From Amphiscolops sp. MND2022 (Eukaryota), in contig OZ076409.1 in NCBI GenBank assembly GCA_964187785.1, forward strand, positions 30,444,001 to 30,508,000: a DNA stretch of 64,000 nucleotides. Direction: 5' to 3'. Shown here piece by piece: positions 7,321-49,870 of the stretch. Numbering within the stretch: position 1 is the stretch's first letter; each line of letters begins with the position of its first letter. The position numbers and the translations under genes are program-made. The notes beneath the pieces are model-generated. The model was not told the DNA's origin. It saw only the letters and a list, made by a program, of their open reading frames with translations, and did no database searches.

Positions 7321-7470
7321 CATATTTGTTGTATAGATCGGTCTCTTCGCTCCCTTCGCCAAGTAGCACCATTGAGGCACGGCAATAATTGCACGTAGCT
7401 CCGCTTCGCTTCGCTCCTGCACTCAGGGCATTAGGGGTATGTGTACATAGCTTACTACGTTATAATAATA
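7321..7470. repeat. Dispersed ~150-bp repeat with CGCTTCGCTTCGCT, possibly a non-autonomous Helentron/DINE-like element
   Basis: The same block (atatttgttgtat...cgcttcgcttcgctcctgca...ctacgttataataa) recurs at ~45700-45845, ~49947-50092 and ~54022-54168. The family assignment is inference only. Confidence 0.6.
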
Positions 7471-8821
7471 TATTTATCGACTGCTAATATTACACATTGA
7501 CAAAATCGGTTTTTTACCAATTGGCGTTTTTGTACTGTTTTAAATTCGGCTGTTTTGTCTTATTTTGAAAATCGGCTGTTTTGTCCCGTTTAAAATCGTC
7601 TGTTTTGTCCCGCACCCATTTCAGCGTTCCTATTGGCTAATGGAGAAAAATAGGTTCAAATTTGAATACATGGGATCATATGTTCATTTTCCCCCGATCA
7701 ATCCTCCCAACACTAAAGCACATTTTGTTCTTGAAAAAAATATTTCAAAAATAAGAGAATAATACTTTCGGAGGAGAGTCTTCTTTTTATGTTGAAACAT
7801 CTTTCATTATTTTTTCTTTCAAATGTGTTTTTCATATATGTCCCAGTGTCTCGGTCTTATGAAGCGTAAACCTAAGCTGAGTTTCAATTCGCAACCTCGT
7901 CTTCGCCCAGACAAACTGTACCTCCAGATTTAGGTTCCCTCAAAGACTTCTTTCGGGACACTGACTCTGATGTACTGAATTTGGGTGAGTGCACTACGAT
8001 CATGGACCCTGTGTCACTCTTTACTGACCCTCTTGAAAAGCCAGAGGCAGCTACCGGTGAGTCTTGTTTCACCGTATTGCATCCGTCCCATCAACACTGC
8101 GAACTGTTTGAACTTTTTGGGAGGATAATCAGGACACAGATCTGTCTGACACGGGCAATACTCAACGGAATACCGTTTTGAACTCTCTTGATCCCTTCCC
8201 CAATCTCAGGCGGCTCAGCGGGCCAATCAGGTCCCTTTTAAGGTCATATTTCGATAACAATGTGCCAGTTACACTATCATACTACCGTCACATTTAGTGA
8301 AGATCAGGTGTACAATTTGATACGAGCATGTGATGAAACCGCTCATGCGTCTTCCCAGATGATGTGTGGATTGTTGCAGCGGGCTTCCAGATTACCTGCC
8401 AGTATTCCTGTGCGTCCTGGCCGCACAGGACTTCCTCAGTTCAACAGTTTCAGACCGTCCACACCAATGCCCTCTATGGCTCGAACTTCTATAGCTAGCG
8501 ACGTGTGCCCGCTCAGCAGCGATCCAGAGTGTTACACCAGCGGAGCTATCCAAACTGGGGATAGTAACATCAAGGCCAGTACCCGATTTTGAAGACCACT
8601 TTGTTGGACAGTCGGCTTCTAGCCCTGATTTTGACGCTGACAAATCTCCCGTAGCTTCCGCCAGCAGTCAAAACCGAGTCACTCTCGCGTCCCTTCGAAA
8701 GGAGACACTTGATGAGTTCACAAACGGGGGAAAGGCCAAAAATCTACTCGATCAATTGCCGTTGGGGATCCGCCCCCGAGAAGTCCCGAATGAGACGTCC
8801 TGACAAGGTGTTCAAGGAGTC

Positions 8822-15708: not shown

Positions 15709-15940
15709 AGTAGTAATCGAATTCCCGTTCCTAATATATAAAAACCCTAAATTTAAGCATTTTTTCCAAAAAAATCGATAAAATTGGTGTTTTTTCACTA
15801 TTAAAAAATAAAAAAATTTAAGCTCGTAAAATCATCAAAATTTAGCATTTTTTCAAGGCAAACCATCTAAAACTAGCCTTTTTTCACAACTAAAAATTTA
15901 ACAAAATAAAAATCAATGAACAAATTTTTCCAATGGAAAA
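15709..15940 (+). repeat. Left terminal inverted repeat of the Polinton
   Basis: Reverse complement of 29644-29875. The outer ~150 bp look identical, with about 6 mismatches in the inner ~80 bp. Confidence 0.95.
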
Positions 15941-15980
15941 TTCATTGACCAAGATATAATCATGGAAAAATAACTATTAA

Positions 15981-16376
15981 ATGAATTATTTATCATTCAA
16001 AGAATTTGTTAATAAATATGGATTAAAAAATGAAGCAACTTCCAATGTAGAAATAAAAGAAATCTTAAAACTCATGAACACATCTTGTGGAATATATATG
16101 AGAGATGATAAATTTAAAACCACCAGTGGTATAGTTAACTTACATCCAACTAAAGGAACACATTGGGTTATGTTTACAAACCAAAACTATTTCGATTCAT
16201 ATGGCTGTCCACCACCACTAAATATAACAAAACAAATTAATAATGGTATCTATTCAGAATATCAAATTCAGACCAACGACAGTTATTGCGCGGCGTATTG
16301 TTTATATGTTTTATATCTCACAAAAGTTAAAGGCTTCAAAAATGCGGTTTTAAATTTATACTACCAAAATTTATAA
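15981..16376 (+). CDS. Adenain-like cysteine (maturation) protease
   Basis: GIVNL...GTHWV...YFDSYG.PP...QIQ...SYCAAYC, giving a His/Asp/Gln/Cys catalytic set. ORF intact. Confidence 0.9.
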   Translation: MNYLSFKEFVNKYGLKNEATSNVEIKEILKLMNTSCGIYMRDDKFKTTSGIVNLHPTKGTHWVMFTNQNYFDSYGCPPPLNITKQINNGIYSEYQIQTNDSYCAAYCLYVLYLTKVKGFKNAVLNLYYQNL

Positions 16377-16581
16377 TTCTTAAATGAAGAAATTTTAATA
16401 ATTATTCAGCTCAATTTAAAACTATTCAAAAACCAATGAATACCAATATGCAAAGCCAGCGAAGCTGTGAGAATCAATTTGATGAGAAAATAATACAAAA
16501 AAAAAGAAATTATCAAAACAAAACCAAGAATTCATAAATAAGATATCTGCAAGTGGATTTAAACAATTTTTCTCTTAATAA

Positions 16582-17588
16582 ATGGATCTATCAAATTTTG
16601 TAACCTATGATAAAAAAGAATATCTTTTGTTGAATACTGCAAAATCTAATCAAGAAATTGTTGAAAATACACATTCTAAACCACAAGAAACTTTAGAATT
16701 TAAAATGAATAAACAAAAAGAATCTTTTTCATTTGATATTCCACTAGACTTACCAGAACAGTGGATGATGGGAGTAACAAGTTTAGAAGTATATAATACT
16801 GTATATAATATTACTGAAAAAAATAATAAACTTAAAATCCTTCTAGAAGACGAACAACTCAAATCATTAAACGTTGACACTCAATTAGTAATGAATGTTG
16901 AGTATTTATATAAAATCTCTGATGTAAAAAAATTAATACATTTATGGTTGATAGTTATTCTAAAAATAAGAAACTTATTAAAAAAGATTTTGATCAACTA
17001 AAGAAAACAATTAATCAAATTAATCAAAATATTAAAGATAAAACAATTATTATTCCTGAATTTGGAATTGAAAATGATTTCGTTGAAATTGAATTAACAC
17101 CAGGAGTATATGAATTAGTTGATATAAATAGAATTATGAAACAAAAACTTTCTGATAGTGATTTTGAATTTGAATTCAACATAGAGGCAGACACAATATC
17201 AATGAAATCAGTTTTAACAACTTCTAAACCCATTTATTTTAATTCAAAATTAAATGAACTTCTAGGATTCACAGATACAAACTAAATAGAAGGAACTCAT
17301 ATATCAGAAAAACCAGTTATGATAACAACCACAGACAAAGTTCATCTTAAATGTGATTGTGTAGATGGTTCAATTGTTAATGGTATACGAGAACAAATTT
17401 TATTTTCATTTAATCTTAGTGCTCCTCCAGGATATAAAATCATAAAAGAACCCAATATTATTTTATATAAAAAAATAAACAAAACAAGGTTAGATAGTAT
17501 TCAATTTTTCCTTGAGGATAACAACCATAATCCAGTTGATTTCAACTCCGAAACATTAACCTTTACAATTCAAATCATCAAGATTTAA
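16582..17588 (+). pseudogene. Minor capsid protein (penton-like), disrupted by one frameshift and one nonsense codon
   Basis: Three collinear ORFs with motifs WMMGVTSLEVYNTVYNI and VHLKCDCVDGSIVNG.REQILFSF...PGYKI..EP...Y...IQFFLED...VDFN.E. Frameshift near the A-run at ~16926. In-frame TAA at 17283-17285, where the relic copy reads TAC. Confidence 0.8.
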
Positions 17589-17597
17589 TTCTATTAA

Positions 17598-17999
17598 ATG
17601 AGCTTTAGTAAATTTAAAAATAATTCATATTGTGTTGGTGGAAAACATTATTCCGCTACCATAAATATTCGTGGAGATATTACTCAAAATAAAAAAACAG
17701 GAGCACCTGTTAAATTATTAAGAGGTACTTGTTCAACTTGCAAAAGAAATAAATCATTAATTGTATCAGATCAAACAATTCAAGCAGAGGGATTGGGTAA
17801 TTTTTTTAAACATTTGGGCTCGGCAGCTAAGAATGTCGGAAAGAAAATATTGAATAATCCTGGAAGAGCATTAGAACTCGCAGCTAATATTGGAACTGCA
17901 GCAGCAAGTAAAAATCCTCGAATGATAGCAGCAACTGCTCCTGATATTATAAAATTTGTTCATCAAGGGAAGGGTTTATATCTGGGTAAAATTCATTGA
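17598..17999 (+). CDS. Small basic protein: N-terminal Zn-ribbon plus amphipathic helix (putative pVI-like membrane-active virion protein)
   Basis: YCVGGKH...CSTCKRNK, then AEG-LGNFFKHLGSAAKNVGKKIL. Conserved in the relic (~37720-38083). Confidence 0.6.
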   Translation: MSFSKFKNNSYCVGGKHYSATINIRGDITQNKKTGAPVKLLRGTCSTCKRNKSLIVSDQTIQAEGLGNFFKHLGSAAKNVGKKILNNPGRALELAANIGTAAASKNPRMIAATAPDIIKFVHQGKGLYLGKIH

Positions 18000-18048
18000 T
18001 TTACAGCCTTGCTGTAAATTAAATATTATTTTTTATAAATAATAAATT

Positions 18049-19023
18049 ATGTATTCAATTCATAATCGAGATGATTTAGAGAAATTAAAAAAATTGCAAG
18101 AAACAAAATCTTCTTTGAAAGCTGAAAGATTAAAAGAGAAGTTAGGGAAGCAAGACTTTCACTATGATATGGAAGAAGTTTTTGAACCAGTTACTGAAAA
18201 TCAGAAAAAAAGTCAAAACCAAACCAAGCTAGAATCTGAAAAGCAGATTCAAGCGTTACGTGATTCTACTCAAACTACAACACAAGCAATACGAGAATCG
18301 AGTAACGCTTTGAATAAAAATTTACAAAAATCGATTAAAGAATATGATGAAATTACTTACCGTAATAATCAACTTGTTACAGATCTTGTGAATTCCAACC
18401 AAGTTGATTCTACTATAATCAAGACAGTTTCTAATTTGCTTAATGACAAAAACAAAAGTCAATTTAGTTTAGAACCTGTTACGCAAAGCGGTGAAGGTAA
18501 TCCAAATTTATTCATAATTAACCCTCTTAATCCTCAACAAGTACTAATTAAAAATATTACACTAACCTTCTTGAGTAGTGGTAACAAATACAATTTAAAT
18601 GATCCCGATCTTTCATATTTTATAACTAATGCACAGCTAGACACGCAACCACAAAACGTGAATCAAATTTATTCTTTTTTAAATGATATGAAATATAATA
18701 TAAATTATGGAGATAAAAAATCAAAGAGATATTTTTTCATTAGAGATTTAATTAATCAATACATATATCAACATATTCCTTATCAACTATCCCAATTAGG
18801 AAGTGGATTTAATCAGTATGTCTTCCTTCCATCGGATCCTGATGAGCTTGTAGATCAATTAAAACTACTTTATTTTGAAAAAGTAGGAGAAAATGATAAT
18901 CCTATGCTTAGTGAACAAATCATAGCAATTGCAGATAAACTTTTACAATACCAATGTATTACAACAAATCAACATCAAAACCTAGTAAGCACTTTTACTA
19001 AAAAGGATCAGTTTGTGGATTAA
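18049..19023 (+). CDS. Polinton-associated protein of unknown function (coiled-coil N-terminus, C-terminal LPSDPDELVDQLKLL motif)
   Basis: Intact 324-aa ORF. The C-terminal helical motif follows a GSG site and is of a type I recall from Polinton proteins. Homologous relic at ~35880-36780. Confidence 0.7.
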   Translation: MYSIHNRDDLEKLKKLQETKSSLKAERLKEKLGKQDFHYDMEEVFEPVTENQKKSQNQTKLESEKQIQALRDSTQTTTQAIRESSNALNKNLQKSIKEYDEITYRNNQLVTDLVNSNQVDSTIIKTVSNLLNDKNKSQFSLEPVTQSGEGNPNLFIINPLNPQQVLIKNITLTFLSSGNKYNLNDPDLSYFITNAQLDTQPQNVNQIYSFLNDMKYNINYGDKKSKRYFFIRDLINQYIYQHIPYQLSQLGSGFNQYVFLPSDPDELVDQLKLLYFEKVGENDNPMLSEQIIAIADKLLQYQCITTNQHQNLVSTFTKKDQFVD

Positions 19024-19951
19024 ATATCTGGTATTGCAGATTGGATTCATTACATATCATATACTTACTCCCATTTTTATCTTCTAACCTATTTATTAAT
19101 AAATAATTATAATTATCCCGCCATGCTTCTCTGCATAAACTTTTGAATTCATCATTAGACATATCAAAACCTGCTATGTCTCTATAAATGTGTTCAACAT
19201 CTTTCAATGTTTGTTGAAATAAAATTATAATATTACTATTGTTTCTAATTGTTCTTTTAGGTAAATCAAAATATGACTGTGATAAATAATAAACATCCAG
19301 ATCATTATGTCTTCCCCTAGTAAAAAATGGATCTATTAATTTCTGATTGGAGTCTAACATATCATCAAATACAACACAACAATTTTGAAAATCTTGAATA
19401 CTTTTATCACCTAAATCTTCTTCCACTGAAACATCTTCTATTTCAATTTTATTGTATTGTTCCGGACTCCTCGTAATGATACATATCTTTTGTTCAGGAT
19501 TATCTAAACGAATTAATTGTAATTTGTTTAATAACAAATGGGTCTTACCACAAAATGATGGACCAACTATCAATGTTCGATTACAGCTTTGCTGGCCACC
19601 GGTGAACATAATATTATCATTATTATCAGTATCATCATTTGTAATAATATTATTTGTATAATTATTATTATCATGATTTTCATTATGATTTATAATTTCA
19701 TTATTTGTATTATCTTGATTGATATTACATCTTTTTAAATGTTTTGATAAATAAGTTTTATTTAATTCTTTATTACAGAATTCACATTTTACTTTCTTAT
19801 TGAAACATTCTATACATGTACTATACAATTTACCATTTCTATATTTGTAAAAATCTGTTTTCAGTATATTACACACTTTACATCTTTTTTTATTCTCACA
19901 ATCGGAACAGACAGATTTTTCATTACTTTTTCCACAAATTAAACACTTCAT
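18998..19951 (-). CDS. A32/FtsK-HerA-type packaging ATPase with N-terminal Zn fingers
   Basis: Walker A GPSFCGKT, Walker B VVFDD, and A32 motif FTRGRH...YLSQSYF.LP..IRNN. The N-terminus has five CxxC pairs plus HxxxC, followed by an Asn-rich linker. Confidence 0.92.
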   Translation of the reverse strand: MKCLICGKSNEKSVCSDCENKKRCKVCNILKTDFYKYRNGKLYSTCIECFNKKVKCEFCNKELNKTYLSKHLKRCNINQDNTNNEIINHNENHDNNNYTNNIITNDDTDNNDNIMFTGGQQSCNRTLIVGPSFCGKTHLLLNKLQLIRLDNPEQKICIITRSPEQYNKIEIEDVSVEEDLGDKSIQDFQNCCVVFDDMLDSNQKLIDPFFTRGRHNDLDVYYLSQSYFDLPKRTIRNNSNIIILFQQTLKDVEHIYRDIAGFDMSNDEFKSLCREAWRDNYNYLLINRLEDKNGSKYMICNESNLQYQIFNPQTDPF

Positions 19952-19955
19952 TTAT

Positions 19956-20077
19956 TTAGTAAAAAATCACTAAATCACTAAGCAAATTCACTAAGAGCAT
20001 GATGTTTTAAGTGTAACCTTATTTGCTTAGTGAAAAATATATGCTCTTAGTGAATTTGCTTAGTGATTTTTTACTAA
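19956..20077. promoter_or_regulatory. Intergenic 37-bp inverted repeat built from TCACTAA/TTAGTGA iterons
   Basis: 19956-20000 (with an 8-bp internal duplication) is the reverse complement of 20041-20077. An extra ttgcttagtga lies in the loop. Function is inferred. Confidence 0.6.
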
Positions 20078-20094
20078 GAAATCAGACCCATTTT

Positions 20095-21126
20095 TTAATT
20101 ACTTTTACTAAACCTGATTGCTTGATCAATTATAATTTTCTTAAATTCCTCTTTAAGTTGATCTGAAATTAGTGGTTGTTGCATGCGTTCAACGTAGTTG
20201 TCTATTTTAGATTCATTCACTTTTATTTTATTTTGTTTACAATAATATACATAATAATAAGCTACATTAAAAGGTGTTATTTCAATTGTTTGATCTGACA
20301 TATCTTCAAGGAATATTTTAAGTTTATTATATTCTTCACCTGTAAAGAAATAACTTTCATATTTTACATAATCTTCAGGACTCCATTTATGTTTAGTTGT
20401 GTCGTAGATTAGTTGGTACTTTTGATTGAGTATTTTATACTTTTGTGATCTGGTATCAAATTCAATTACACCAAATTCTAACTGACTACGATATTGTTTC
20501 CATTTAAGATCTTCTTTGATTGAATAAGTTTGTATTATGGTTTCGAAGAAACTATCTGGATTATTTATTGTGATATATAATTTAAAACAATTCTCTCTCA
20601 CTATTGGGAGAACATCCTTTGCATAGTGAGCAAGGTATATAACTTGTATATTATTGTGTCTACCAAACCGAAATAAGTCTTCTACTTTAGTTCTGAGTTG
20701 TTTGAATGCTCCTGCATCATCTAAAATTATAGTTCTATTAGCAAGTTTCTCTATTTCAATATTTTCTAACTGTAACAAAGGTATATATTTATCTTTAAAC
20801 TCAGTCTCATCTCTACCGAATACTATAAAATCGTTTTTAGTTTGATCTAAATAATACTTAAGGAAACTAGTCTTACCTGATCCACTAGTACCATATATTA
20901 AAAAATGACAATTAGTATTTGTATTTGGTGGAGTAAGTTCTTGTTCTTCTTCTTTGTTAGTTACCGGAGGGCAGCTTCGCTGTAAATGAGAATATTTAAA
21001 TCCCTTGAATTGTTTTAGTTTTTGGTATAATTTTTTATAATAATTAGGTTTAATATAATACCAGTACACCCACAAAATTATAATAAAAATTACACAAAAT
21101 AAACCTATATATAATTTTTTATTCAT
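20095..21126 (-). CDS. Second A32/FtsK-like P-loop ATPase with an N-terminal transmembrane helix
   Basis: Hydrophobic segment LYIGLFCVIFIIILWVYWYYI, Walker A GTSGSGKT, Walker B IILDD, and FRFGRH...YLAH...IVREN. ORF intact. Confidence 0.85.
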   Translation of the reverse strand: MNKKLYIGLFCVIFIIILWVYWYYIKPNYYKKLYQKLKQFKGFKYSHLQRSCPPVTNKEEEQELTPPNTNTNCHFLIYGTSGSGKTSFLKYYLDQTKNDFIVFGRDETEFKDKYIPLLQLENIEIEKLANRTIILDDAGAFKQLRTKVEDLFRFGRHNNIQVIYLAHYAKDVLPIVRENCFKLYITINNPDSFFETIIQTYSIKEDLKWKQYRSQLEFGVIEFDTRSQKYKILNQKYQLIYDTTKHKWSPEDYVKYESYFFTGEEYNKLKIFLEDMSDQTIEITPFNVAYYYVYYCKQNKIKVNESKIDNYVERMQQPLISDQLKEEFKKIIIDQAIRFSKSN

Positions 21127-21140
21127 TTATTAGGAAATAA

Positions 21141-21998
21141 ATGAATGAAAAGAAAGAAATTGTTAAAGAAATATTCTCTCCTGTAATTAAAAAGTTTGAT
21201 CGTATTAAAATAATTCCCCATTATAAAGATGAGTGTTGGAGTATTGATCTGATAGACAGGTCTAGCTTAGCAAAATACAACAAAAACTACAAGTTTATTT
21301 TTACAATAATTGACAATCATACCAAATATGCATGGGCGATTCCTCTTAAAGATAAATCAGGAAAAAGTACAACAACTGCATTAAAAAGTCTTATCGAAAA
21401 AACAAAAAGAAAAGCTGATAAAATTTGGTCAGATAGAGGTAAAGAGTTTTATAATAAAACATTTTTGGATTTTCTGAAACAAAATGAAATTCAAATTTCT
21501 TCAACTAATTCAGATTTAAAAGCTGTTTTTGTTGAACGCTTCAATAGAACCTTATTAGATCTAATAAAAAAACCAATGTATATTGAAGGTAAAGCTTGTT
21601 GGTTGAATCACTTTGATGCTGCTTTGGAAAAATATAATAATCGTGTCCATGGAACAACAAAAATGACACCATTTAAAATGGTTACCAATACTAATAAAAT
21701 TATCAATATTAAAATTAATAAAAATGAAAAAATACCCAAATTTCAAGTGGGAGACTATGTAAGAGTTCCTGACAAAAGGAACATTTATTCAAAAGGTTAT
21801 ACAACAAATTGGAATAGAGAACTTTTTAAAATACACAAAACTAATCCAACTAACCCAGTTACGTATGGTTTAGTAGATGAAAACAACGAACAAATAGAAG
21901 GAAAGTATTATGAACAAGAACTTATAAGAAGTGTATTCAACTTTGAATCTAACAACAAAACGTTAGAAAGTATGAATATTTTCCATCGTTATGAGTAA
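21141..21998 (+). CDS. Polinton RVE (retroviral-like DDE) integrase
   Basis: WSIDLID / WSDRGKEF / VERFNRTL give the DDE triad. C-terminal FQVGDYVRV...KGYTTNW...IEGKYYEQEL. No chromodomain is visible. Confidence 0.95.
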   Translation: MNEKKEIVKEIFSPVIKKFDRIKIIPHYKDECWSIDLIDRSSLAKYNKNYKFIFTIIDNHTKYAWAIPLKDKSGKSTTTALKSLIEKTKRKADKIWSDRGKEFYNKTFLDFLKQNEIQISSTNSDLKAVFVERFNRTLLDLIKKPMYIEGKACWLNHFDAALEKYNNRVHGTTKMTPFKMVTNTNKIINIKINKNEKIPKFQVGDYVRVPDKRNIYSKGYTTNWNRELFKIHKTNPTNPVTYGLVDENNEQIEGKYYEQELIRSVFNFESNNKTLESMNIFHRYE

Positions 21999-22015
21999 AT
22001 ATATTTATATAAATA

Positions 22016-22726
22016 ATGTCAATTCATAAATTTGGTTATAGTGCCGAAAGCTTACAAAAAGATAAGATTGAGAATTTAGAAAAAGAATTGGAATCACAAA
22101 CCAAATTAATTAACTTGAAGCTTAATGATTTGTCTAATACTTTAGAAAATTTTGATATGCAAAACACCTTCGGTAGCCTACAAGAAATTATATTTGACAA
22201 CGGTGAAACACAAATTGTAGTCAATGCAAAGTTATTCTTAGATATAAATAAAAGTATAGAAGATATAAAAATAAATTTAAAATATTTAGAACAAGATATT
22301 AAAATAAAATTTTTAGAAAAGAAAAAAGAAATAATTTTGGATGCTGCCAAGTTAGTAGAAGAACAGCAAGTCATTTTACGTAGTCACTTTGAGAGAAACC
22401 TTATTTCAGAATTGGAAAAATGTAAAAATCAAGCAGTCAAAGATACTATTCAATTACTATATAATAAAGGATTGTTTGACTCATTTGAAAATAAAGACCA
22501 AATCTTTAATGAGTACTTATATTTTAGTGATGAATACTTGTTGGAAAAATACGGAAAAGAAATAAAGACATCAGATGGTGTGTATTATTTATCTGATTTA
22601 GATTATTCAACGCGAGAAGATATTTTGAAGTGCTTAAAAATAGATGAATACAAAGATATTGTTGATCTTAAATATAGAATGAAACTAACCGATACTGAGA
22701 TAAATTTCATACTTTTTGAAAACTAA
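22016..22726 (+). CDS. Hypothetical coiled-coil Polinton protein (236 aa)
   Basis: Intact ORF. Its C-terminus RMKLTDTEINFILF is matched by the relic at ~34740-34790 (RMKLTDTEGNFILF). Confidence 0.65.
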   Translation: MSIHKFGYSAESLQKDKIENLEKELESQTKLINLKLNDLSNTLENFDMQNTFGSLQEIIFDNGETQIVVNAKLFLDINKSIEDIKINLKYLEQDIKIKFLEKKKEIILDAAKLVEEQQVILRSHFERNLISELEKCKNQAVKDTIQLLYNKGLFDSFENKDQIFNEYLYFSDEYLLEKYGKEIKTSDGVYYLSDLDYSTREDILKCLKIDEYKDIVDLKYRMKLTDTEINFILFEN

Positions 22727-22750
22727 AATTAAGTTTTTATTTAAAATTAA

Positions 22751-23272
22751 ATGAGTGAAAAATTGTATCCTTGTTTATGTGAATCAGATAATCTTGATAT
22801 GCGATTGAAAGAAATAAATAGTTTTAATAATTCAATTCAAAAAATAAAAGATATTCAAAATTTTTATAATCATGAAGCTAAAAAATATAAAAAGAAAAGT
22901 AAACAATACAAGCTTATAAATTGTTTAATTCAATCTATTGATGGAGTGTCGGTGTTTGGTGTATCATCAACATGTGTCACGTTGAGTGTCACAGGAGTTG
23001 GACTTGTTGTTGTACCTATAGCAAGTGGTATAGGTGCAGGTTTATGTATAATCAGTAAAATTGCTGGAGAGTACCTGAAGAGAAAAGAACAACACAATAT
23101 TAAAAAATATACTCTTGCTGGTAGAACACTAAATGATTTCTGTAAACTACATTCAAAATTTTTAGAAGACAAAAAAATTGATCTGAATGAATACAACAAA
23201 TTAAAACAAACTTATGAAGTGTACAAAAACAATAAAACTAAATTAAATTCTGAGTTTACTTTTTTAGGATAA
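22751..23272 (+). CDS. Putative membrane protein with a central Gly-rich hydrophobic hairpin (173 aa)
   Basis: VSVFGVSSTCVTLSVTGVGLVVVPIASGIGAGLCII flanked by charged helices. Homolog in the relic (GVTSTCVTLSVTGIG, 34303-34602). Confidence 0.7.
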   Translation: MSEKLYPCLCESDNLDMRLKEINSFNNSIQKIKDIQNFYNHEAKKYKKKSKQYKLINCLIQSIDGVSVFGVSSTCVTLSVTGVGLVVVPIASGIGAGLCIISKIAGEYLKRKEQHNIKKYTLAGRTLNDFCKLHSKFLEDKKIDLNEYNKLKQTYEVYKNNKTKLNSEFTFLG

Positions 23273-23340
23273 AGTTATTTAGTAAAAATAATATAAATAT
23301 AAATTTTAAATCATCATCATGAATATTTATTCTTTTATAA

Positions 23341-24568
23341 ATGGAATTATTTTCATTGAAAAATAAATATGCTATGGATAAACCTATTCATAAAATTGAT
23401 TTTTCTAAATATAGTCCAAGTAGTTTAGCTACAATCAACAATAATAATTCAAACATTTCCATCATCTTCCCAAGAGAAGATGCATATATTTGTTTACAAA
23501 ACTCATATAAATCTTTAGAATTTGAAGTTCTTAAAATGATGATACAAGATATGCAGATGGTGATCAAATAAGCTTGGTCAACTTTGGACCCGTTGCTTTA
23601 TTTAGTGAAGCTAAGTTAACTACTAGTTCAGGTAAACATTTAGAAAAAGTTGATAATCTACACCCCATTTCATTGATGTATAAACTTTTAACATCTAATC
23701 AACAAACAAGTCAATTGATGTACGGGTTTGAAGAATCACAAGCAACTAGAAGACAAGAACTAACAACAAACAAAACAGAAAAAGGAACCTTTTTTGTTAG
23801 AATTAGGTTGAGTGATATATTTGGATTTGCTGATAAAGAAAAAATAACATATGGATTGGGTTACAGTCTCACATTAAAACGTAATAAAAATAACGACCCC
23901 ATTATAAGGGACAATGGTGTTGATGCTGCAAAAATAAATATAAAAGACATCTCCTGGTATATTCCACACTACACACCATCAATGGAAAACCAACAACTCG
24001 TGATGGATCAAATATTAGACAAAGATCCAACTGAACTGTATTATATTGAACGAGTTGTTTTTAGAAAAGATGTTAACACCAATAACAATTGGACATTTGA
24101 ATTAGGTAATAGTGGTGAATCGACACCAAGTTTTATAATTGTTGGATTTCAAGCTAGAAATAAAATTGATTCACAAACACATGATAATGCAATAATGATC
24201 GTTTACCTGTTTCAAATGCAGTTTGTAAAATAGGATCAGAAAAATATCCCGATGACGGAATAGAATGTGATTATGATAGAGATAAATATGATCAAGCATA
24301 CAGTGAAATTGAAAACTTCTATTTGTTAAAAAGTGAAACTAATCTACTCAATCCATTTATTGATTTACAGAAATTCAGGACAAATTATAATTTTTATGTA
24401 TTTGATTTATCCAAACAAAAAGACCCCATCGGGAGTCAACCTATTAGGTTAGAATTTAAATTTAATGCTGCCATTAATGTAGCAGACTATATAGCTTATG
24501 CCCTAGTCCTAACACCTAAACTGATAAGTATCAGTAGTGATGGACAAAGGCATTTTGATTTATTATAA
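23341..24568 (+). pseudogene. Major capsid protein (double jelly-roll, hexon-like), two frameshifts; ~409 aa when repaired
   Basis: Three collinear ORFs. One-nt deletions near 23533 (A-run; relic reads KNDNIRYAD) and ~24195. The repaired frame gives PSFIIVGFQ...KIGSEKYP...YDQAY...FYVFDLSKQ...IRLEFKF. The DJR assignment rests on motif pattern, size and context. Confidence 0.8.
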
Positions 24569-24746
24569 GCAAAGCTCTTTCAGTAAATAAATATAATTTA
24601 AATATATAAATTTAAAAAATATATAATAATACAGCTTTGCTGATATGATAAATAAATTTATAAAATAATATATTTATTTTTATAAAATGATAATAATTAT
24701 AAAATGATAATATAATAAATAAATTTATAAAATAATATATTAATTT

Positions 24747-27700
24747 TTATAAAACATGTGCTCGATCACTTATCAACTTCACAAGTTGTTGATGGGTGAG
24801 TGCTTGTTTCCAATACCAAACACTCCAATATATTTCTTCATCTGTTTTCTTGCTACTGTCATCATTTATAGTTAAATCTTTATAATACAAACCATTTAAT
24901 TTCAAACAATATATACAAGGACAATCACCTTTCTGGGTGTGTTTATCCCATGGTAATTTTTGTATTGGATTTATATACAAACGTTTATCGTCAAAAGGAT
25001 TCAAAGCTAGTTTGTTTTGTTTTTCAACTGTAAGGTTGTGTAAATTAGATCTAATTGATATATTTGTAGAACTTGATGTTTCTGAATTAAACAATGAATT
25101 TTTGTAGTGTTCACATTTGGGAGCTTTTTGTATTCCTTTTTGTTTCGCTTTTTGAATATTATTGTAACTAAAAGAATATGACTTTGATCGTAATGCTGTG
25201 AATGTATCAAACAACAAAACTGGACTTGTTTCAATTTTCATTTTTCCTATAACTTTTTTGTTAATAGGATTATATAATTCATGCGATTTATCTAATTCAC
25301 TAAAATCAAATTCATCTTTGTTTTCTTGTAAAAAGTTTATTAGTTCTTGGTGGTTTGTATCAAAACTCAGAATAAGACTATCAGTGTCCATGTAGTGTAG
25401 TTGTATGGATTGTTTCCAATATGGTTGTAATTTGTTATAATAAAATTCATACATTAATAGTTTTGACAACTCCAGAACTGTAAAACCTCAATAAATTGGT
25501 TTATCAAAGACTGTTTTTTCTTTATCAAACTTGTACACACTAAACTTAGAATAATGATCCACAATGCCTTTGAAACTTAACTTGGATTGTCTTTTTATTA
25601 TTTGATCTATTTGAGAATGATCAATGAATTCTAGATTGGTTCTATCTCTTACATTTTCCATTGTCTTGCCAAAGAAAGCATTGTTCATTAATTTATAAAG
25701 ATCCTTTTCAAAGTTTGTTTTCGCTACTGTGCGTTTCTGAGTATTATGATCGATATATTTACCTAACCATTGACTTGTTTAAACTTATAGATAGTATGTA
25801 TCTTCGTTACTTTCATCCCTTGGTTAAGATAAAACTTAAACATCCTATAATGTATCATATATTTCGATTTATTGGTTACATCACACATAAGTTTTGGGGT
25901 TGGTTTGTAATTAGGTTGATTTATATTATTCATATAACCTGAGAATAAGTTTGGATCTGCTTTTGTTTGATACGGACAAAAAGGAAAGTTTTTTGTTTTT
26001 TTTTAAATTTCAGCTGGATATTCTAAATCACATTCTATAAAGAATCCATATTCATTATCATCAGGTATTTGTAATAAATCTTCTACTAATTGCTCTAGAT
26101 TGTAATTATCTGTGTAATTACACGGATTAAGAGGTAATATTTCGACTTCGCCAGTAGGAAGATATTGACTCATTGCCCATCCATATAGATTATTTGCATC
26201 GATATATAAGATTTGTTTATTTTCATCAGATTGCACGTGACGATCTCCCATAACACTTGAAATTCCTCCACGGATATTATTTTCAAGTAGTAGTAATAAT
26301 TTTTTACCGGAGGGCAGCTTCGCTGTATCTTTTATAAAGTCTAACTTTATATTAGTCAACTTCAATCCTGCTTTCCATGTATAACCAGGTAGACTATAAG
26401 AGTACAAAGGAATAATTTTATATTCTCGTGTAGAACTTTCCACAAAGTTTTCGAATACATCAGTTAATTGAAGAACATCCATTTTTAAGTATAACATTGT
26501 TAATTCTCTTCCATTTTTAATTTTATTTTTATCAATTAATTCTTGGGTTCTTTTTATATCATCATCTGATGGATAAGATTGTGTTAATGTTGACCAATAA
26601 TCTTCTTTGGTTAGATTTAATGGTTCCTGAAAGTTATCAAGATTTAAGTATTCATATGGATAAGCTAATTTCTTTTTAAATAAATCATCACTCATTCCTT
26701 CCAATTTCATGATAGGGAAATTGTCTAAACTCTTAACTAATTTATTTAAACTGGAAGAAAGAAATCGGTATGAATCTAAGAATCTCAAACAACCTACTTG
26801 TACACTAACATAATTTTCCAGTGATTTTGGAATTATCGTTGGATTATAATTTTGATTGTATGCTTCGGTTAAGAGTTCTTCAAATATAAGATGACAATCA
26901 TACCCAGAAAAGTTATGGAAAAATATAGGAACAAAACTTGATGACTTTTGTTTACAATTTATGTTACATATATTATGAGCTGCTCCTCTGTATTTTCCTG
27001 TTAGATGATCATGATCTCTAACCTTAGTATCATCGAGTGGATTTTCACAAAGCCAACACTCTTCTGCAAGTTGAAATGATTCTTCCTCTTGAGGAGTTAT
27101 TTCTAATTCTAAGTTTGTTTTAAAATAGTTATTTGCAATTTTTTCTAAAGTTAACATTCTATTTACAAACCACGTGGTACAATCTATTCCAAAGTATGAA
27201 TAGTAATAATTTCCGAATGGTGAAATTACATAATATCCTACTGCAATTGGAGTTTGTTTAAATAATACTTTGGGGTCTTTTTGAGGTTGATTAATACATT
27301 CAAAATCTGCATATACTCTTATTGGTACAGGAACTTTCATGTGGTAGTGTTCGAACTTTAACTGATCCTTCCAACTGAATGTGATTTTAGTTGGTTGTTG
27401 TTTTATACATCTTTCCATATGATCAATTAGAACTGGTTGTGAACTAAATGCTGTTAAACATCTTCTACATACATGTTTCATGTGTGAATCTTTATTTATT
27501 AAACAATGTAGCTTTGTTATTAAACAATAGTGATTTTGATATAATAATAAATCTATTTGTGGTTGTAAGTAATTTTTGTTAACGTGGATTGGTGTTAGCA
27601 CATTTCCTGTGAGTTCGAATACGTTTATACACAGTCCAATATTTAAATTTTCAAACTTGGGAATATCTTTGACTTTCATAGGGAATTCTAAACCTTCTAG

Positions 27701-28515
27701 GTTGAATTTATCAAAATGTTTTGAATAACTCGATGTTATATTTTTATTATTCTCAACTGGAAATAAATATGCTAATATACACCATAGAAAACACAATTGA
27801 TCATTATTTTTTATATTTATTATTGATTGGCTGTTTTTATATTTTGGTGGTAACTCAATATATGAAGATGCTTGAATATCATTAACTTTATATATTTCTA
27901 AAACAACTTCTTCTATTTCTTGAAACACAAACCCTGATCCTTCTAATTGTTCATCATCTAATTTTTGCATTAATGTGTTATGAGTATCTTGTTGTGTATG
28001 ATTATATATTAGATCTGATTTTATCCATCTTTTAAATACTTCTTCTTCTCCATTGATTATTTTTGAAAATTTAGCTAGATTACTCAATTGATATTTAAAT
28101 CGAGGAAAGTACCTTTTACTTTTTAATTCTTTTATACGATTTTCAAGATTTTCAGTTGGATTTATTTTCAGTTTAATGTATGTATTTTCATTCACAATTA
28201 TATTTACTCCATTACCGGAGGGCAGCTTCGCTGGCTTTGCATACCGTTTTGTTGACGGTTTTGTAAATGAATTTCACTTTGGAAATGTCTTGTTGTATCA
28301 GATATATATTTACTACAATCTTCACACCATATTTTATTGATGCGGTTTTTATGTTCATCTGAATTTAAATGAGAATTTTTATCTGAGATAGGCATATATA
28401 AATTACATTTTTTACAATAATATTGATTTAATTTTTCAAGATGTTTTACTGATTTTAAATGATCAGACTTGAAAGCTTTTTTATAATTTAAATTACAAAT
28501 ACTACAATTCTCCAT
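24747..28515 (-). pseudogene. Protein-primed family B DNA polymerase (Zn fingers - TP - vOTU-like - exonuclease with EndoVII-like insert - polymerase), disrupted
   Basis: Motifs ExoI YADFE, RDHDHLTGKYRGAAHNICN, ExoII FHNFSGYD, ExoIII YLKMDV, PolA YIDANNLYGWAM, PolB KLMNNAFFGK and PolC YMDTDS. Lesions: frame break at ~28212-28242, TAA at 26003-26005, frameshift at ~25775, TGA at 25488-25490. Confidence 0.95.
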
Positions 28516-28662
28516 TTCTTATTATTAAAGAAAAATAGTTTAATTAAAAATTTTTCAATTATAATTTTTCAAAAAATTGGTGAAAAATATTTTAATTTTG
28601 TGGTGGTAAGGTATTAAAATTTGCCACAGATTTGAATGATAAATATTTCATTTAAGAAAATT

Positions 28663-29226
28663 TTTATAATCTGTAATCAGAAACTCAAGACCTTTCCAAT
28701 GATGTATCACACATGGCAATATCTTAAACTTTTATAATCTCTACATGTTTAAGGGTTTCAGGTTTGAGATGGTATAGTTTCAGTTGTTGGTACCCAATCA
28801 TGAAAATATTCAAAATCTGTGATCTCCAACTCAAGACCTTTCCAATGATGTATCATACACTGTGATATGTTGAACTTTTATAATCTCTACATGTTTAAGG
28901 GTTTCAGGTTTCAGGTGGTATAGTTTCAGCTGAGGATGTCCGATCATGGAGATAATCACCATCTATGATTTCTTTTTTATGACATATCCAATGATGTATC
29001 ATACACTGTGATAAGTTGAAGTTTTATAATCTCTACATGTTTAAGGGTTTCAGGTTTTTCGAAGTTTCAGTTGGTATACATTTGTACTAGGTTTTCGAGT
29101 TGGATCTAGATGGATAGCCCTTGTCAAGACCTTTTCAATGGTATATTATACTTTGTTGTAACTCAAATATTCGTTGAGTTATGGCTTTTCTCCTGACCTA
29201 TTAGTAATCTCTACATGTTTAAGAGT
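28663..29226. repeat. Subterminal tandem repeat, ~146-bp unit, about 3.5-4 copies
   Basis: gac(c/a)t(t/a)tccaatg at 28689, 28835, 28981 and 29128. tttataatctctacatgtttaagggtttcagg at ~28731, ~28877 and ~29023. Confidence 0.9.
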
Positions 29227-29643
29227 GAAAGTCTGAATGGAAAAAGTCTCTTTGCCAGTTTCATTTCTTCGGCCATGCTGTTTGCTGTGACTGTAGAGAG
29301 AAAAGTGAAAAATGAAATTTTGGTGCATTCCGAATGCACCTCAAGGTCAGACGACCATCTGGTGCGTGAAATTTTGTTTGAAATTTATATGGTGGTAATT
29401 TTTCCAACAGTTGTGGTGTCCACTTGTGCGCATCCGGGAATTTATCAATAATGAAAAATGTGTTCTTCATTTTTATATGTAATTTTTTAATGGGTAAAAA
29501 TGAAGAAAAAAACTCGTTTTCAATTTGGACACTTGTGTTTTCTACTTGAACGCATTTGGTAAGTATTCATTTTTTCTTCACGATGTGGTAATAATTCTAT
29601 TATACGTCGATGGAGGTTAGTTCAATTTTGGTTTGTGACAAAG

Positions 29644-29875
29644 TTTTCCACTGGAAAAATTTGCTCATCGATTTTTATTTTGTTATCTTTTTAGTTGTGA
29701 AAAAAGGCTAGTTTTAGATGATTTGCCTTGAAAAAATGCTAAATTTTGATGATTTTACGAGCTTAAATTTTTTTATTTTTTAATAGTGAAAAAACACCAA
29801 TTTTATCGATTTTTTTGGAAAAAATGCTTAAATTTAGGGTTTTTATATATTAGGAACGGGAATTCGATTACTACT
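29644..29875 (-). repeat. Right terminal inverted repeat of the Polinton
   Basis: Ends ...gaattcgattactact and is followed by the TSD cggaac. Confidence 0.95.
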
Positions 29876-29914: not shown

Positions 29915-32900
29915 ATTCAAGTCTGATCATCTAAGGCAGTGAATTATCTAGAGAAATTAAATGAAGTTTTGTAGAACATGAAATTCAAAGACGCCTGTAT
30001 CAGATGAAACTTTTCATTTAGGTTCTGAGGAGTAAACGATTGAAACCATTAAAAAAATTTGTGAAGATTGTGACATTAATTGTGATATTCGCAAAGTCAC
30101 ACTCATATCCTTAGAAGTAATTAAAGTAACCAACAAAAGAAACCAGCTGAATCAACAAGGTAGCCAGCCTAATCAGCAAAGTAAGCAGCTGAAACAACTT
30201 GGAAGCTAAAAAGCAGATATATTCGTGAATGAAAAAACATACATCAAATCGAAAAAAAATCGACTGGCTATCTCAAAGAACAGATCGATGATTTACTAGG
30301 TAAAAGTTAGTTACATCGATACAAACATCAACTAGTTGTTTAGTTAACGAGTTAAACGAGTTATTTAGCTAATCTTTCAAACTTCGTTACTAGAGAAGAA
30401 CATAATTTTCAAAAATAGTAAATATCAAATTCAACTCACAATCACTTGGATTAAGATGTTCATCAGGTCTTAATTGAGAAATTGAATGATGAACAATTGG
30501 AAGGATCCGGTTTTCTGTTTCAATATAACAACGATTGTGAAAATCTAGTAAAAACTGTCAATATAAAAAACTAAGATGAAGATGTTTTTCAGGGTGTACA
30601 TTAGCCCACAAAAAACAGTTGTTGATAATGAACACAGAACATCGAATTTTTCCAAACATTTATCTGTACTAAAGGTGGGAAAGTTAGAATTCCCAATGAA
30701 AGTGAAAGACTTTCCCAAATTTGAAAAACTAACAAACTTAAACATAAATGACTCTGAGTTGACTCAACAGTGCCAACACTAGTTCAATTTAACACAAACT
30801 CGGATCAACCTCAAATGAGATCAAAATTGGCTAATATCAAAGTCACACTCTAATAAACAAGGACTCCCACATGAGTCATGTATGTAAAAGATGTTTAATA
30901 GCATTTAGAAGACATCAATATTGAAAAATTTAAAAGATGTGTAAAACAACAATCAACGAATAATTGTTCTAGTTATAAAGATCATCTGAGGTTTAAAGGT
31001 CATTACATGAAAGTAGATGTACCAATAAGAGTACATGCAGACTTTGAACGTAATAAGCAACGTTCTCTTTAAACCCATTATTTGTAATTGCTCTTGGTTA
31101 TCGAATAATATCACCATTTGAAAATCAACGTCACTCACTCTTTGGAACAGACTGTGTTAAATGGTTTGTAAACAATATGTTATTTTCAGAAAAAGAAGCA
31201 ATACGTTCTTCAAAACAATTATACCACAGCATTTACCTCGTTAAGAGGAAGTACAATTCGAAGAAACTGAATGGTGTTGGTTGTGGGAAAAGCCTTTTGT
31301 CTCTTCATGTGAAAATTATTTCATCAAAGAGAATGTTCGTCACCGTGATCATCTAACAGGAAGAAACCAGAGGAGCAGCTCATAATGAGCGTAATCTCAA
31401 CTGTTAAATAAAAAGTTCGGAACATTTTTCAAGAATTTCCCACAATTTCTTAGGGTATAATTTTCATTTACTTTTTGATTAGCTCTTGACCGATTCTTAC
31501 AATCAAAAGTTCGAACCAACTATACTACCTAAGAAACTGTTTATCAGTCCAAGTAGATTGCTTACATTTCCTGGCAGTTATAAATTTCTTTCTGCGAGTC
31601 TAACAGTGCCAACACTAGCTGGTGTATCTTCAAAAAATTATAGCATCTTTGGATTGTTTCAAGTATATGGCCTCCCAGGGTTTAAGTGTTGATTTGTTCA
31701 AGAAGTAGTTAGACTACCCATATGAGAAATTTAAAGAAAAAATTTCAAGCCAACCACTAAACCTAGTCAAAGACGACTATTGGACAACACTAATTTAAAC
31801 ATATCCTGACGCTGATATAGCACGTACGAACGAAATATCCAAAAACATGCAACGTTACAACACCACAATTACTAATCCTGATGTTTTTAAAAACAGTTGT
31901 TTTTCAATGAACAGATACATTTGAGAACTTTGTGGAATGGAAACATATACGCAATAATACGGCATAAATCTGTTGTACATTTTATAGGCACCAAGTTATA
32001 CAAGGAAAGCAGTTTTCATTGACTAATATCAAGTTAGAGTTTATAAAAAATAAATAGTTGTTACCACTACTGCAAAACAACACCAGTGGATGAATTGCCA
32101 GTGTAATGGGTGATTGGTATGTTGAATTGGATATCAACAAACAGTATTTTGAGCTATGAGTATTTTGTGCTCTGAGTATTCTCCGAGAATAAACATCATC
32201 AAGAAAATGTAGAAGGATTTGTAAAGATTCCGGATGACAATGAATCTGGATTTTTTTAAAACTGTGATCTGGACCCTCCAGCTGAACTCTAACAAAAGAC
32301 TCAAAACGTTCCGAATTACCCCTATTAGGTAGAAGTTAGTTGTGTAATTTTCTCAGAATAAAGAACTTCATGAAACAACTGAACTACACACAACCAATCC
32401 AGATGCTTGTGTGACCTAATGAAGCAACAAAAATAGATGAAGCAATCTCATTATATAATGTTCAAGGTTTAGGTCAACATAGGGATTATAGTAACAAAAA
32501 ATACATTATACAGGTTCAAGGAAAGTGCATGGTTAGCTAAGTACATTGATCATAACACCCAAATTAGAACCCAAGCAAAAACAAACTTTGGAAAGACATA
32601 TACAAGTTAATGAATCATGCTTTCGTTGGTAAGGCTGTGGGAAAGTGTGGACCAGATTCCTAACTCATTCTCGAATAAAGCACATGAACAAAGATAAGCC
32701 AAATTGAGTTTCAAAGGAATTCTACGTTTAGTGTTCATAAATGGGATGAAAAAAGACCTGTTTATGATAAACCAACATATTTGGGTTCTCTCTGTTACAA
32801 TTAAGTAAACTATTAATGCATAGACTTCATTATCATACTTTAGAACCCATGGGTATGAAAAAAATGCAATTACAGTATTTGGATACTGATTCTTTTGTTT

Positions 32901-38900: not shown

Positions 38901-40561
38901 TGGTGGGTGTTATTTTTTGAACGGTATGATGTACTTCTAAACTTGTAACACCTAGCATATATTTTCAGACCAGTTTTCAGGGGAACATTGACTGAAAATA
39001 TTTTTTCGTTTATTCATTTTCGTTTTTTGAGGTTTAGAATGTGTATTTTCAACTATCAGCAACATAAATTCTGCAAGATTGAATAGAAGAGGGTCTTGTT
39101 ATCATAAGTTACATTCGACAGCTCCATTCAATAAGAACACATGTTCAGTTACTTTCAGAAAAACACTTGAATCTACAAGCGGCACTTTTATCTACAATTT
39201 TTTTGTCTTTTGTTTTCTAAACATTTTTTTGTTGCATTTTGATTGAGTTGTGGTTGGGACTGTTTTAGAGATACGATTTTGAGCTGATAACCGTTGTTTT
39301 TTTCTTTTATTGTTGATGAAACCAGGTAATATACGACTAAACCTGCATTTTTAAAGCCTTTCATTTGTGTGAGATTTAGAACATATAAACAATAAGAGGC
39401 GCAATAACTGTTATTTCTCTGAATTTGATATTCTGAATAAATACCTCTAATACTTTGATATATTACATTTAATGGAGGTGGGCAGTCATATGAATCTAAA
39501 TAAAACTCATCAACGAACATAACCCAGTGTGTTCCGTCAGTTGGATGTAAAATTACGATACCACTTTTAGTGATAAAAGCATCATCTCTCATTTATATTC
39601 CAGATGGAAATATCATCAATTCTTTAGGATTTTCTTTTGTTTTCACAAGAGAAGGTGCTTTATCTCTTAATCCATGTTTATCAACAAATTGATAATCCAT
39701 GTTTATCAAAAAAAAACAAAAAAACACTGTATTATACCTTTTAAAAGTTCACATAATGAAAACGGAGTATTGTAACTTTATAAAAGGAACAGTGTAATTA
39801 AAATTGATGCAAGTTTAAAAGGTAATAGACAAGACGAAAAAACAGAGGCGATGAACGCTATTTAAATCGGTAGTTGCTCCAACATTTTTTTCCATATTCA
39901 GGAAAGTTGATTTCGGCATTCAATTTTGTGAGATAGAAGTTTTTAATTTTGATTTTGGCAGTAGCGAAAAGGCACTTTTTTGCGTATATTTTTGGCAGGG
40001 TGTTCCATAGGGGTACAGTTTTTTTGAAAAAACTGTTTCTCAGAAAATCAGATCTACAAAAGATATTGAAGTAAAGAGTCTCGGTTCTGATTTGTTTTCG
40101 TATTCTGCCACTCTCCAGTTGAGAGTCTCGGAACGCCGGGATTAGGTTGTTTTTCCATTTCCAAAAGTATGATAATGATTTGTTTTTAAGGAAATATCGG
40201 ATCGGTGGATGTTGTTTTTGATCTTAAGATCCGATGATCGATCGTACTTTGTTCGATTAAAACACGCTTTTATTCCCCAATTCAGTTGTTTCTCTAAGGT
40301 CGTATTGAGATTTTCAGTTAAGTTTGTTATCAACAAATATTAATTCTTGATATTTATTTTTTTTTAATTTTGAAGAACAAAAAATGGCTAATTTTTGCTG
40401 ATTTGCCTTCTGAATATGTTTTCTTTGGCTGTTTTTCTAATCCGAGAAAACTGTCAGTAAACTTTATAATTGTGAAAAATGGCTGATTTTTGATGATATA
40501 CATTGAAAATATGCTTATTTTTGTTTATCTCCTGTTCCGAATCTGGATTTCCCATACTACT
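29915..40561. mobile_element. Heavily decayed related Polinton in inverted orientation
   Basis: Collinear remnants: pPolB (+, ~29915-33250; EQLEGSGF, LEFPMKVKDFPKFE, YLDTDS), MCP (-, ~33330-34090), 173-aa and 236-aa homologs (-, ~34300-34990), ATPase (+, ~35050-35560; FFTRGRQKDLDVY), 324-aa, 133-aa and penton homologs (-, ~35880-39130), protease (-, ~39320-39700; GTHWVMF). A TIR-like end finishes in ACTACT at 40556-40561. Confidence 0.92.
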
Positions 40562-49600: not shown

Positions 49601-49870
49601 CACTATTTCGAATACGTCTTGTTAGCACATCCAATAACACCTTCCACTCCCTCTATCTCTTCGTTTAATCCGGCAAACAATTTCATGCCTTTCATCATGT
49701 TGTTCGTGCAACCCCTATCCACTTTCAAGTCATTGTTACTCACTTCATTATGCTCATTTGCAAAGAATGAAAAATGGATTTCAAACAATTTTCACCAGAG
49801 TCATCTTGTTGCACAGCTAACCTCGCCTCATCGGTTCTTTGGTTGCTTTGATTTCCTTACATTTTAAAAA
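46659..49870 (-). mobile_element. Duplicated 3' part of the copia element, copy 1 (LTR 46659-46894 plus pol)
   Basis: Polypurine tract AGGGGGAG next to the LTR. RNase H VFVDNQA...KTKHFAIK, integrase CDVC and VHCDVLG, protease VDRGCTNNM. Confidence 0.85.

Follow-up and report, generated by a model that had tools for sequence, protein, structure and literature searches.

We analysed a 64,000-nucleotide stretch of the Amphiscolops sp. MND2022 genome (assembly GCA_964187785.1, contig OZ076409.1, positions 30,444,001 to 30,508,000, forward strand), hereafter the window, which contains a Polinton/Maverick element encoding two neighbouring ATPases of the FtsK-HerA/A32 type. We refer to these as ATPase 1 and ATPase 2 and give positions in window coordinates; the host genome searched comprises 1.07 Gb. 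The element and the parts of it that concern the two ATPases are:

15709..29875, no strand, whole Polinton/Maverick copy, 14,167 bp, starting AGTAGT and ending ACTACT
18998..19951, minus strand, ATPase 1, 317 aa: fingers at residues 1–76, low-complexity linker, ATPase at about residues 120–317
19724..19951, minus strand, Zn-finger-like module of ATPase 1: CxxC repeats, the last a C2HC-like finger
19967..20066, no strand, imperfect palindrome with six TTAGTGA motifs, three per strand, directly upstream of ATPase 1
20095..21126, minus strand, ATPase 2, 343 aa: transmembrane (TM) helix, ATPase at residues 62–242, C-terminal tail at about residues 243–343
21052..21108, minus strand, predicted TM helix of ATPase 2, residues 7–25

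An ordinary ATPase fused to zinc fingers

An earlier reading of the letters alone (the original prediction) had described two open, co-oriented reading frames with Walker A, Walker B and GRH motifs, and both are confirmed. ATPase 1 has Walker A GPSFCGKT, Walker B VVFDD, TRGRH and YYLSQ, with GK, DD, R214 and Gln225 as key residues; the LSQ and N-terminal Cys/His fingers ascribed to it are there, the latter as the Cys/His-rich residues 1–76, ahead of an Asn-rich linker predicted to be disordered (78–121). In sibling proteins these fingers match zf-C2HC_2 below the cut-off. The AlphaFold model of ATPase 1 superimposes on STIV2 B204 (Z 16.9, root mean square deviation (RMSD) 2.7 over 172 residues). 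Pfam gives no Pox_A32 match at E ≤ 0.05, and the protein shares 27–39% identity with the single ATPases that other Polinton families encode, themselves found by the Pox_A32 profile. The fusion of fingers and ATPase is real, because the frame is open in most copies (54 of 62 in subfamily A and 37 of 41 in B and others, despite many linker lengths) and the linker mostly lacks methionine; a separate zinc-finger open reading frame (ORF), with the ATPase starting from Met116, was rejected, as 34 of the 37 open B and other copies have no Met in the linker. We take ATPase 1, with its fused Zn fingers, as the likely ordinary motor for packaging the element's genome.

A member of the A32 fold with a predicted membrane anchor

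ATPase 2 combines Walker A GTSGSGKT (G79-x4-G84K85T86), Walker B IILDD (D136D137), FGRH (arginine finger R156) and YLAH. Over 42 family rows at 25–80% identity, D136, R156, H157, H167 and R177 are invariant, and G79, G84, K85, T86 and D137 are kept at 90% or more. The protein lies above the Pfam Pox_A32 cut-off (30.7 versus 22.8 bits), the same profile is matched by all 24 members of its alignment at E ≤ 0.01, and its atlas neighbours are 96–100% viral. Its AlphaFold model matches B204 (Z 15.6, RMSD 2.7, 164 residues aligned), followed by VirB4 (Z 14.4), HerA (14.3), TcpA (13.1) and EccC (11.9), and a Foldseek search agrees on the fold. For the models of both ATPases (mean predicted local distance difference test, pLDDT, 79 and 72), B204, VirB4 and HerA rank highest, with B204 the best among 48,161 solved chains. 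The Pox_A32 and fold matches put ATPase 2, with its A32 fold, within the FtsK-HerA/A32 clade. Sequence searches of solved structures returned Walker A-level matches only, and PHROG matches to 'terminase large subunit' and 'clamp loader', like Pfam AAA matches, were set aside as generic P-loop similarity.

The N-terminal TM helix of the original prediction is supported by a hydrophobic stretch at residues 7–25, whose Kyte–Doolittle (KD) mean over 19 residues is 2.37 (best ATPase 1 window, 0.73), with a net charge of +2 before it and a basic stretch of net +7 after it. Of the family rows that can be tested, 33 of 38 have a predicted hydrophobic helix (KD ≥ 1.8) ahead of the ATPase, as do 21 of the 24 distant ones among these; none of nine testable ATPase 1-type proteins has one. 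Rows need at least 45 residues before Walker A, for which 4 of the 42 are too short, including a clam protein as annotated. Helix and ATPase share one reading frame, both within this ORF and in those 33 rows, so the helix is not a separate peptide. The original prediction was also right that LAH replaces LSQ (YLAH here) and that ATPase 2 has a C-terminal extension, which is helical and runs for ~100 aa beyond the core at 62–242; a structure-atlas search with it gave no usable look-alike.

Separate descent and a wider family

The two ATPases belong to separate families. They share 26% identity over 101 aa, and their family profiles align at 99.3% probability. We built a tree of 37 rows, with few outgroups and without a true root. 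In it a branch with 98/98 support sets off all 25 ATPase 2 rows, together with one long-branch protein, and the three ATPase 1 rows group with eight ordinary ATPases at 99/97. A recent tandem duplication is rejected by the low identity and by these positions on opposite sides of well-supported branches. The suggestion of a paralogue repurposed for a membrane job thus holds in part: a separate ATPase for a membrane-associated role fits the data, and a local duplicate does not.

ATPase 2 His167 aligns to Gln225 of ATPase 1, so its sensor is polar and not Gln. LAH had been taken as a special sign, and here the original prediction fails, given that single ATPases encoded by other Polinton families of the genome show ISH or IKH at this position (ISH in family C; IKH or IKQ in family D). 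The histidine is not diagnostic because those lone ATPases carry it too, and on the same ground we rejected the idea that it marks a loss or change of catalysis. The available text of PMC11703096 describes the FtsK-HerA sensor as a 'polar residue, mostly glutamine'. Further Polinton families in the genome (L103-L132, L133-L184) encode lone ATPases in frames of 234–308 aa with His or Gln at the sensor.

The ATPase 2 family extends beyond this host, with members at 24–52% identity in ENA, JGI and Logan data. Two are proteins of the clam Mactra antiquata (KAL4240361.1 and KAL4224295.1), on two chromosome-scale contigs. A divergent member, P0409, comes from another assembly; its best match in the host genome is 36%, and we therefore rejected it as a product of that genome. 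A metagenome scan yielded two short, distant loci, in each of which the homologue of ATPase 2 has as its neighbour a Cys/His ORF that stands alone and is similar to the fingers of ATPase 1 (E 4e-9 and 3e-8, values inflated because they come from a two-sequence search without composition correction). Viral contigs and prokaryote genomes, scanned for the context of ATPase 2 homologues, yielded nothing.

Linkage and selection in sibling copies

The pair is adjacent and co-oriented in 30 of 30 loci chosen by ATPase 2 (of 118 scored matches) and in 30 of 30 chosen by ATPase 1 (of 150), two sets that overlap; in subfamily B, at 65% identity, the genes are adjacent in 30 of 30 loci (of 104). Frames are open in most of the 118 scored ATPase 2 copies. 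One copy has an insertion of ~500 bp between ATPase 2 and the motif array (L094:2538-3338).

Between subfamilies A and B, the ratio of non-synonymous to synonymous substitution rates (dN/dS) for ATPase 2 (dS 0.9–1.4) is 0.15 in the core, 0.20 in the C-terminal tail and 0.33 in the TM region, alongside 0.21 for the ATPase 1 core, 0.28 for its fingers and 0.13 for the integrase. Each value comes from at most 150 pairs of copies, all with open frames. Within subfamily A, ATPase 2 variants shared by three or more copies include fewer amino-acid changes than singletons do, in the core (p 3.5e-6) and in the tail (p 5.6e-5). ATPase 2 is therefore neither absent nor neutrally decaying in the A and B copies; it is present there and under purifying selection. 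These substitution patterns indicate that both ATPase genes are maintained by selection.

A young subfamily without ATPase 2

About 40 bp past the right end of the first copy begins another Polinton of this lineage, heavily decayed and oppositely oriented (29916-39691). It lacks the Zn finger, ATPase 2, the integrase and most of the next ORF, and a unit of ~400 bp is repeated three times near 36900-37850.

DNA searches from this neighbour found subfamily F, in which ATPase 1 with its Zn finger stands directly beside the integrase, its core 87–88% identical. Subfamily F is very young, with at least 70 near-identical copies (70 near-full-length matches at 97–100%; L198-L252, for example G000:C8, C1, C4, C5, C6 and C7) and a within-family dS of 0.000–0.015. 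ATPase 2 is absent from this thriving subfamily: it was found in none of 30 small loci and in none of 10 pairs of 10-kb stretches, and a family profile search of the F stretches matched ATPase 1 only. It is also absent from all four older F-like regions, and the six other regions fetched alongside these are all A-like with ATPase 2 present. Sister family C has one ATPase only in five of five regions. Descent of F as a deletion family from the decayed neighbour was rejected, as the neighbour's junction matched only itself.

Subfamily F keeps the protease-like, penton-like, major capsid and integrase genes, with dN/dS against A and B of 0.07–0.18 over the kept genes (capsid genes 0.07–0.15, ATPase 1 domain 0.14–0.17). 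ATPase 2 is dispensable. The obligate form of the two-component motor put forward in the original prediction accordingly gives way: F retains ATPase 1, the protease-like, penton-like and capsid genes under purifying selection, and the integrase, all without ATPase 2, barring a supply in trans.

The putative polymerase of F, which runs in the opposite orientation, shares about 45% identity with the one in the window copy and about 90% with its counterpart in a family C-like element. A polymerase tree splits 12 ATPase 2-positive from six negative elements at 100. In the capsid, penton and integrase trees F falls among the ATPase 2-positive elements without forcing support, and in the ATPase 1 tree it is basal. 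Because the polymerase tree and the capsid-side trees place F differently, it is likely a recombinant, joining the capsid module of the window lineage to the polymerase of a family C-like element.

A family C Polinton has, at each of its ends, a copy of one 150-aa Cys-rich ORF, the two inverted relative to each other (L135:8807-9256, L174:5452-5901), an arrangement that suggests a Zn-finger gene inside long terminal repeats.

A TTAG(T/A)GA array beside ATPase 1

The 100-bp palindrome with its six TTAGTGA motifs lies in the gap that separates the stop codon of ATPase 2 from the start codon of ATPase 1, and five other elements have 9–21 TTAG(T/A)GA motifs per 500-bp bin at the same site. Loci of subfamily F, without ATPase 2, keep the array (9–66 motifs per locus); it therefore follows ATPase 1 and not ATPase 2, and is a candidate binding or packaging site for the ATPase 1 fingers. 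In F the array, located between ATPase 1 and the integrase, has turned into tandem units of 51 bp and differs widely in length (L201:697-1233, L202:259-1233).

Possible roles of ATPase 2

We give an even chance to a reading in which ATPase 1 packages the genome and ATPase 2, a distinct ATPase of the A32 fold that selection maintains but elements can do without, is predicted to be anchored in a host membrane and serves as a DNA pump or tether in its own right. Under the positive-inside rule for the orientation of membrane helices, a single N-terminal helix followed by basic residues would place the motor on the cytosolic or nucleoplasmic face of the endoplasmic reticulum (ER) or nuclear envelope. 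FtsK and TrwB form rings of their own; ATPase 2 would do the same, and could then pump or tether element DNA at the host membrane by itself. Its job would be tied to replicating DNA and not to the capsid, because its absence coincides with the swap of the polymerase, which hints that ATPase 2 belongs with the replicon. The ATPase 1 fingers, for their part, may bind the TTAG(T/A)GA motifs that precede their gene, either to mark DNA for packaging or to control that gene. A broader version, which we regard as doubtful, makes ATPase 2 a new family of single-pass A32-type DNA pumps in Polinton-like elements of several animals, associated with one polymerase type, by which a linear genome would be held or pumped at the nuclear envelope or ER apart from packaging, with ATPase 1 picking genomes through an expandable array.

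Several observations weigh against these proposals. The two short distant loci, the only ones with context, show no capsid, integrase or polymerase gene, and both clam proteins are annotated without a TM helix. The singleton test is non-significant for the TM region (p 0.73) and for ATPase 2 in subfamily B (p 0.31 and 0.48). The trees do not decide between loss and gain of ATPase 2, F being nested among positives in three of four capsid-side trees. The polymerase link comes from one evolutionary event, and one recombination cannot show co-evolution of ATPase 2 with the polymerase, so that it hints at a connection and serves as a lead. The numerous A and B copies could supply subfamily F with ATPase 2 in trans, though the F copies are younger than they are; a search of the F stretches for the window copy's terminal inverted repeat (TIR) gave no match. 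Finally, the TTAG(T/A)GA motif is not enriched over the window as a whole (30 versus 24 ± 4), its enrichment being local only.

The adjacency and shared orientation of the pair in every locus of the three sets, together with the arginine finger kept in both proteins, could instead point to a mixed motor, in which ATPase 2 is the membrane-tethering subunit or partner ring of ATPase 1 at an inner particle membrane, with F using trans-supply or a simplified motor. FtsK-type viral motors are indeed tied to membrane-containing particles in the available text of PMC7617512 and PMC11703096, and both distant loci set an ATPase 1-like Zn-finger ORF next to an ATPase 2 homologue. We nevertheless think this arrangement unlikely: young F lacks ATPase 2, yet its ATPase 1 domain stays so similar under the same constraint; the sister families carry one ATPase; and the two proteins come from different clades. 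Slightly less unlikely in our estimate is an accessory gene acting on the host by membrane remodelling, protein transport in the manner of VirB4 or EccC, or counter-defence. Its patchy, optional presence would suit such a gene, as would VirB4, TcpA and EccC among the fold matches and a C-terminal helical domain without a usable look-alike, whereas its sequence affinity is to viral packaging ATPases (the Pox_A32 matches and viral atlas neighbours above), whose known substrate is DNA according to the portions of PMC11703096 available.

A pump in a lipid layer of the particle, moving the genome across a membrane at virion entry or exit independently of ATPase 1, is improbable. The layout of anchor plus ATPase recalls inovirus gp1, the only viral TM member compared in the available part of PMC11703096, and one family member has a weak PHROG match to M13 protein I (E 9e-4); against this, F has the same capsid genes without ATPase 2, and we found no sign of lipid in these particles. 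Least credible by far is that ATPase 2 is a passenger, a neutral duplicate or decaying cargo with no role. Its absence from F and from the decayed neighbour copy would fit, but the between-subfamily dN/dS of 0.15–0.33 at the dS given above, the catalytic residues kept across the family and the frames open in most copies, set beside the broken capsid and polymerase genes of the window copy, contradict it; the selection data therefore refute this reading unless they are an alignment artefact.

Relation to known systems

One packaging ATPase per Polinton is what the available portions of earlier work describe (PMC8502044, PMC11131425, PMC11161782, PMC8097293, PMC11071296, PMC7617512, PMC11703096 and bioRxiv 2022.05.25.493380). 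A full-text search for 'polinton' with a second, additional or duplicated ATPase found no paper, a scope that leaves out figures, Repbase-type records and subscription papers; the text part of the PMC8502044 supplement has 'FtsK' twice and 'FtsK2' not at all, and its maps are figures that could hide a two-ATPase element. Animal Polintons and adintoviruses, as far as the available text of PMC8502044, PMC8097293 and PMC11161782 goes, share with this element AGTAGT TIRs, a 6-bp duplication, rve integrase, double jelly-roll (DJR) capsid, an FtsK-type ATPase and core genes under purifying selection, and have a polymerase and a protease, for which this element has putative counterparts; they differ in that one ATPase is described, where here there are two from different clades, one Zn-finger-fused and one with a predicted anchor. 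A32-like and STIV B204 ATPases (PF04665; PDB 4kfr; PMC11703096, in part) likewise share the fold, Walker A and B, arginine finger and polar sensor, but are near-minimal soluble motors, to which ATPase 2 adds a predicted TM helix, a helical tail of ~100 aa and a His sensor. Members of the ATPase 2 family also occur outside this host, so automatic annotation with a single 'FtsK' for each element may be conflating two different proteins.

TrwB and TcpA, which are coupling proteins, resemble ATPase 2 as fold matches. Bacterial FtsK, with its N-terminal TM domain, and inovirus gp1 also join an anchor to a RecA-like motor (PMC11703096, available text). ATPase 2 differs from such anchored FtsK-HerA members in having one helix, a much shorter chain and A32-type viral affinity, and we saw in it no gamma or four-helix insertion domain. 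Giant viruses (Medusavirus stheno, Klosneuvirus and Hokovirus entries are among the fold-search matches) similarly have several A32-like ATPases per genome; by comparison, ATPase 2 keeps its catalytic motifs, did not arise by local duplication and belongs to an integrating element of 14 kb. Adenovirus IVa2, with its repeated packaging sequence, is a parallel case of a packaging ATPase that could itself bind a motif repeated in cis. Recognition here would differ by running through the fused Cys/His fingers, and IVa2 is described in the available text of PMC11161782 as a distinct ABC-type ATPase.

DNA packaging, membrane use and nuclear-envelope crossing of Polintons are open questions in the accessible parts of the papers cited. 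This genome offers a natural comparison, with closely related families that share a capsid module and have or lack the ATPase with the predicted anchor, the type without it having a swapped polymerase; the Zn fingers of the likely packaging ATPase and the repeats adjoining its gene make a candidate protein–DNA pair. If the broader version above is true, the TTAG(T/A)GA array would give a Polinton a defined packaging signal, and ATPase 2 would be a eukaryotic-virus counterpart of FtsK or TrwB.

Gene map of the element and other features

The remaining features of the element are:

15709..15940, plus strand, left terminal inverted repeat, 232 nt, 97% complementary to 29644-29875
15981..16376, plus strand, small ORF, presumably protease-like
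16582..17588, plus strand, penton-like gene, a label inferred from position and size
18049..19023, plus strand, conserved ORF of unknown kind, tail to tail with ATPase 1
21141..21998, plus strand, rve integrase, divergent from ATPase 2 and 14 bp from its start
23341..24568, plus strand, double jelly-roll major capsid gene (Pfam DJR-like_dom PF21738)
24747..28273, minus strand, gene that we take to be family-B polymerase-like
28204..28515, minus strand, small Zn-finger ORF adjoining the polymerase (zf_UBZ, E 8.3e-6)
29644..29875, minus strand, right terminal inverted repeat

The copy shows the hallmarks of a Polinton: AGTAGT-type TIRs, a 6-bp target duplication (CGGAAC on both flanks), rve integrase (PF00665, E 2.9e-13, 50.4 bits against a cut-off of 32.6), DJR capsid (E 1.7e-8, 34.5 bits against a cut-off of 27) and one ordinary FtsK-type ATPase, with ATPase 2 as an extra. 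We assume the protease-like label from the customary Polinton layout and the His/Cys motifs of the ORF; a Pfam scan gave no protease family match, and dN/dS between subfamilies is 0.17–0.19, as expected under purifying selection. The penton-like ORF, also under purifying selection and without a Pfam family match, has a fitting size and place. The polymerase-like label is our assumption from its motifs, two pieces scanned against Pfam giving no PolB match and a weak Endonuclease_7 match. An Rfam scan of the element found no match.

Both ATPase frames are open in the window copy, where three other genes are broken: the penton-like gene by a frame change near 16,930 and a stop near 17,285, the major capsid gene by frame changes near 23,535 and 24,197, and the polymerase-like gene by stops near 25,488 and 26,003 and a frame change near 25,775. 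A homologue of the conserved ORF at 18049..19023 also adjoins the lone ATPase of a sister family. The small Zn-finger ORF beside the polymerase occurs in 11 of 12 mapped ATPase 2-bearing elements and is missing from all subfamily F stretches.

Two ORFs after the integrase (22016-23272; L141-L144, L157-L158, L167-L168) differ in place among elements, lying between integrase and capsid in A and F and beyond the polymerase in B-like elements; one of them, of 173 aa, has a long hydrophobic Gly/Ala/Val stretch, in family C too. Near the right terminal repeat the element includes three 146-bp tandem units (28649-29086). Elsewhere in the window are three tandem copies of a 4.1–4.3-kb unit at 91–96% identity (about 45600-58150), a 150-bp part of which also occurs at 7321-7473, and a near-perfect 162-bp palindrome at 63712-63873, with 81-nt arms, 99% matched and without a spacer.

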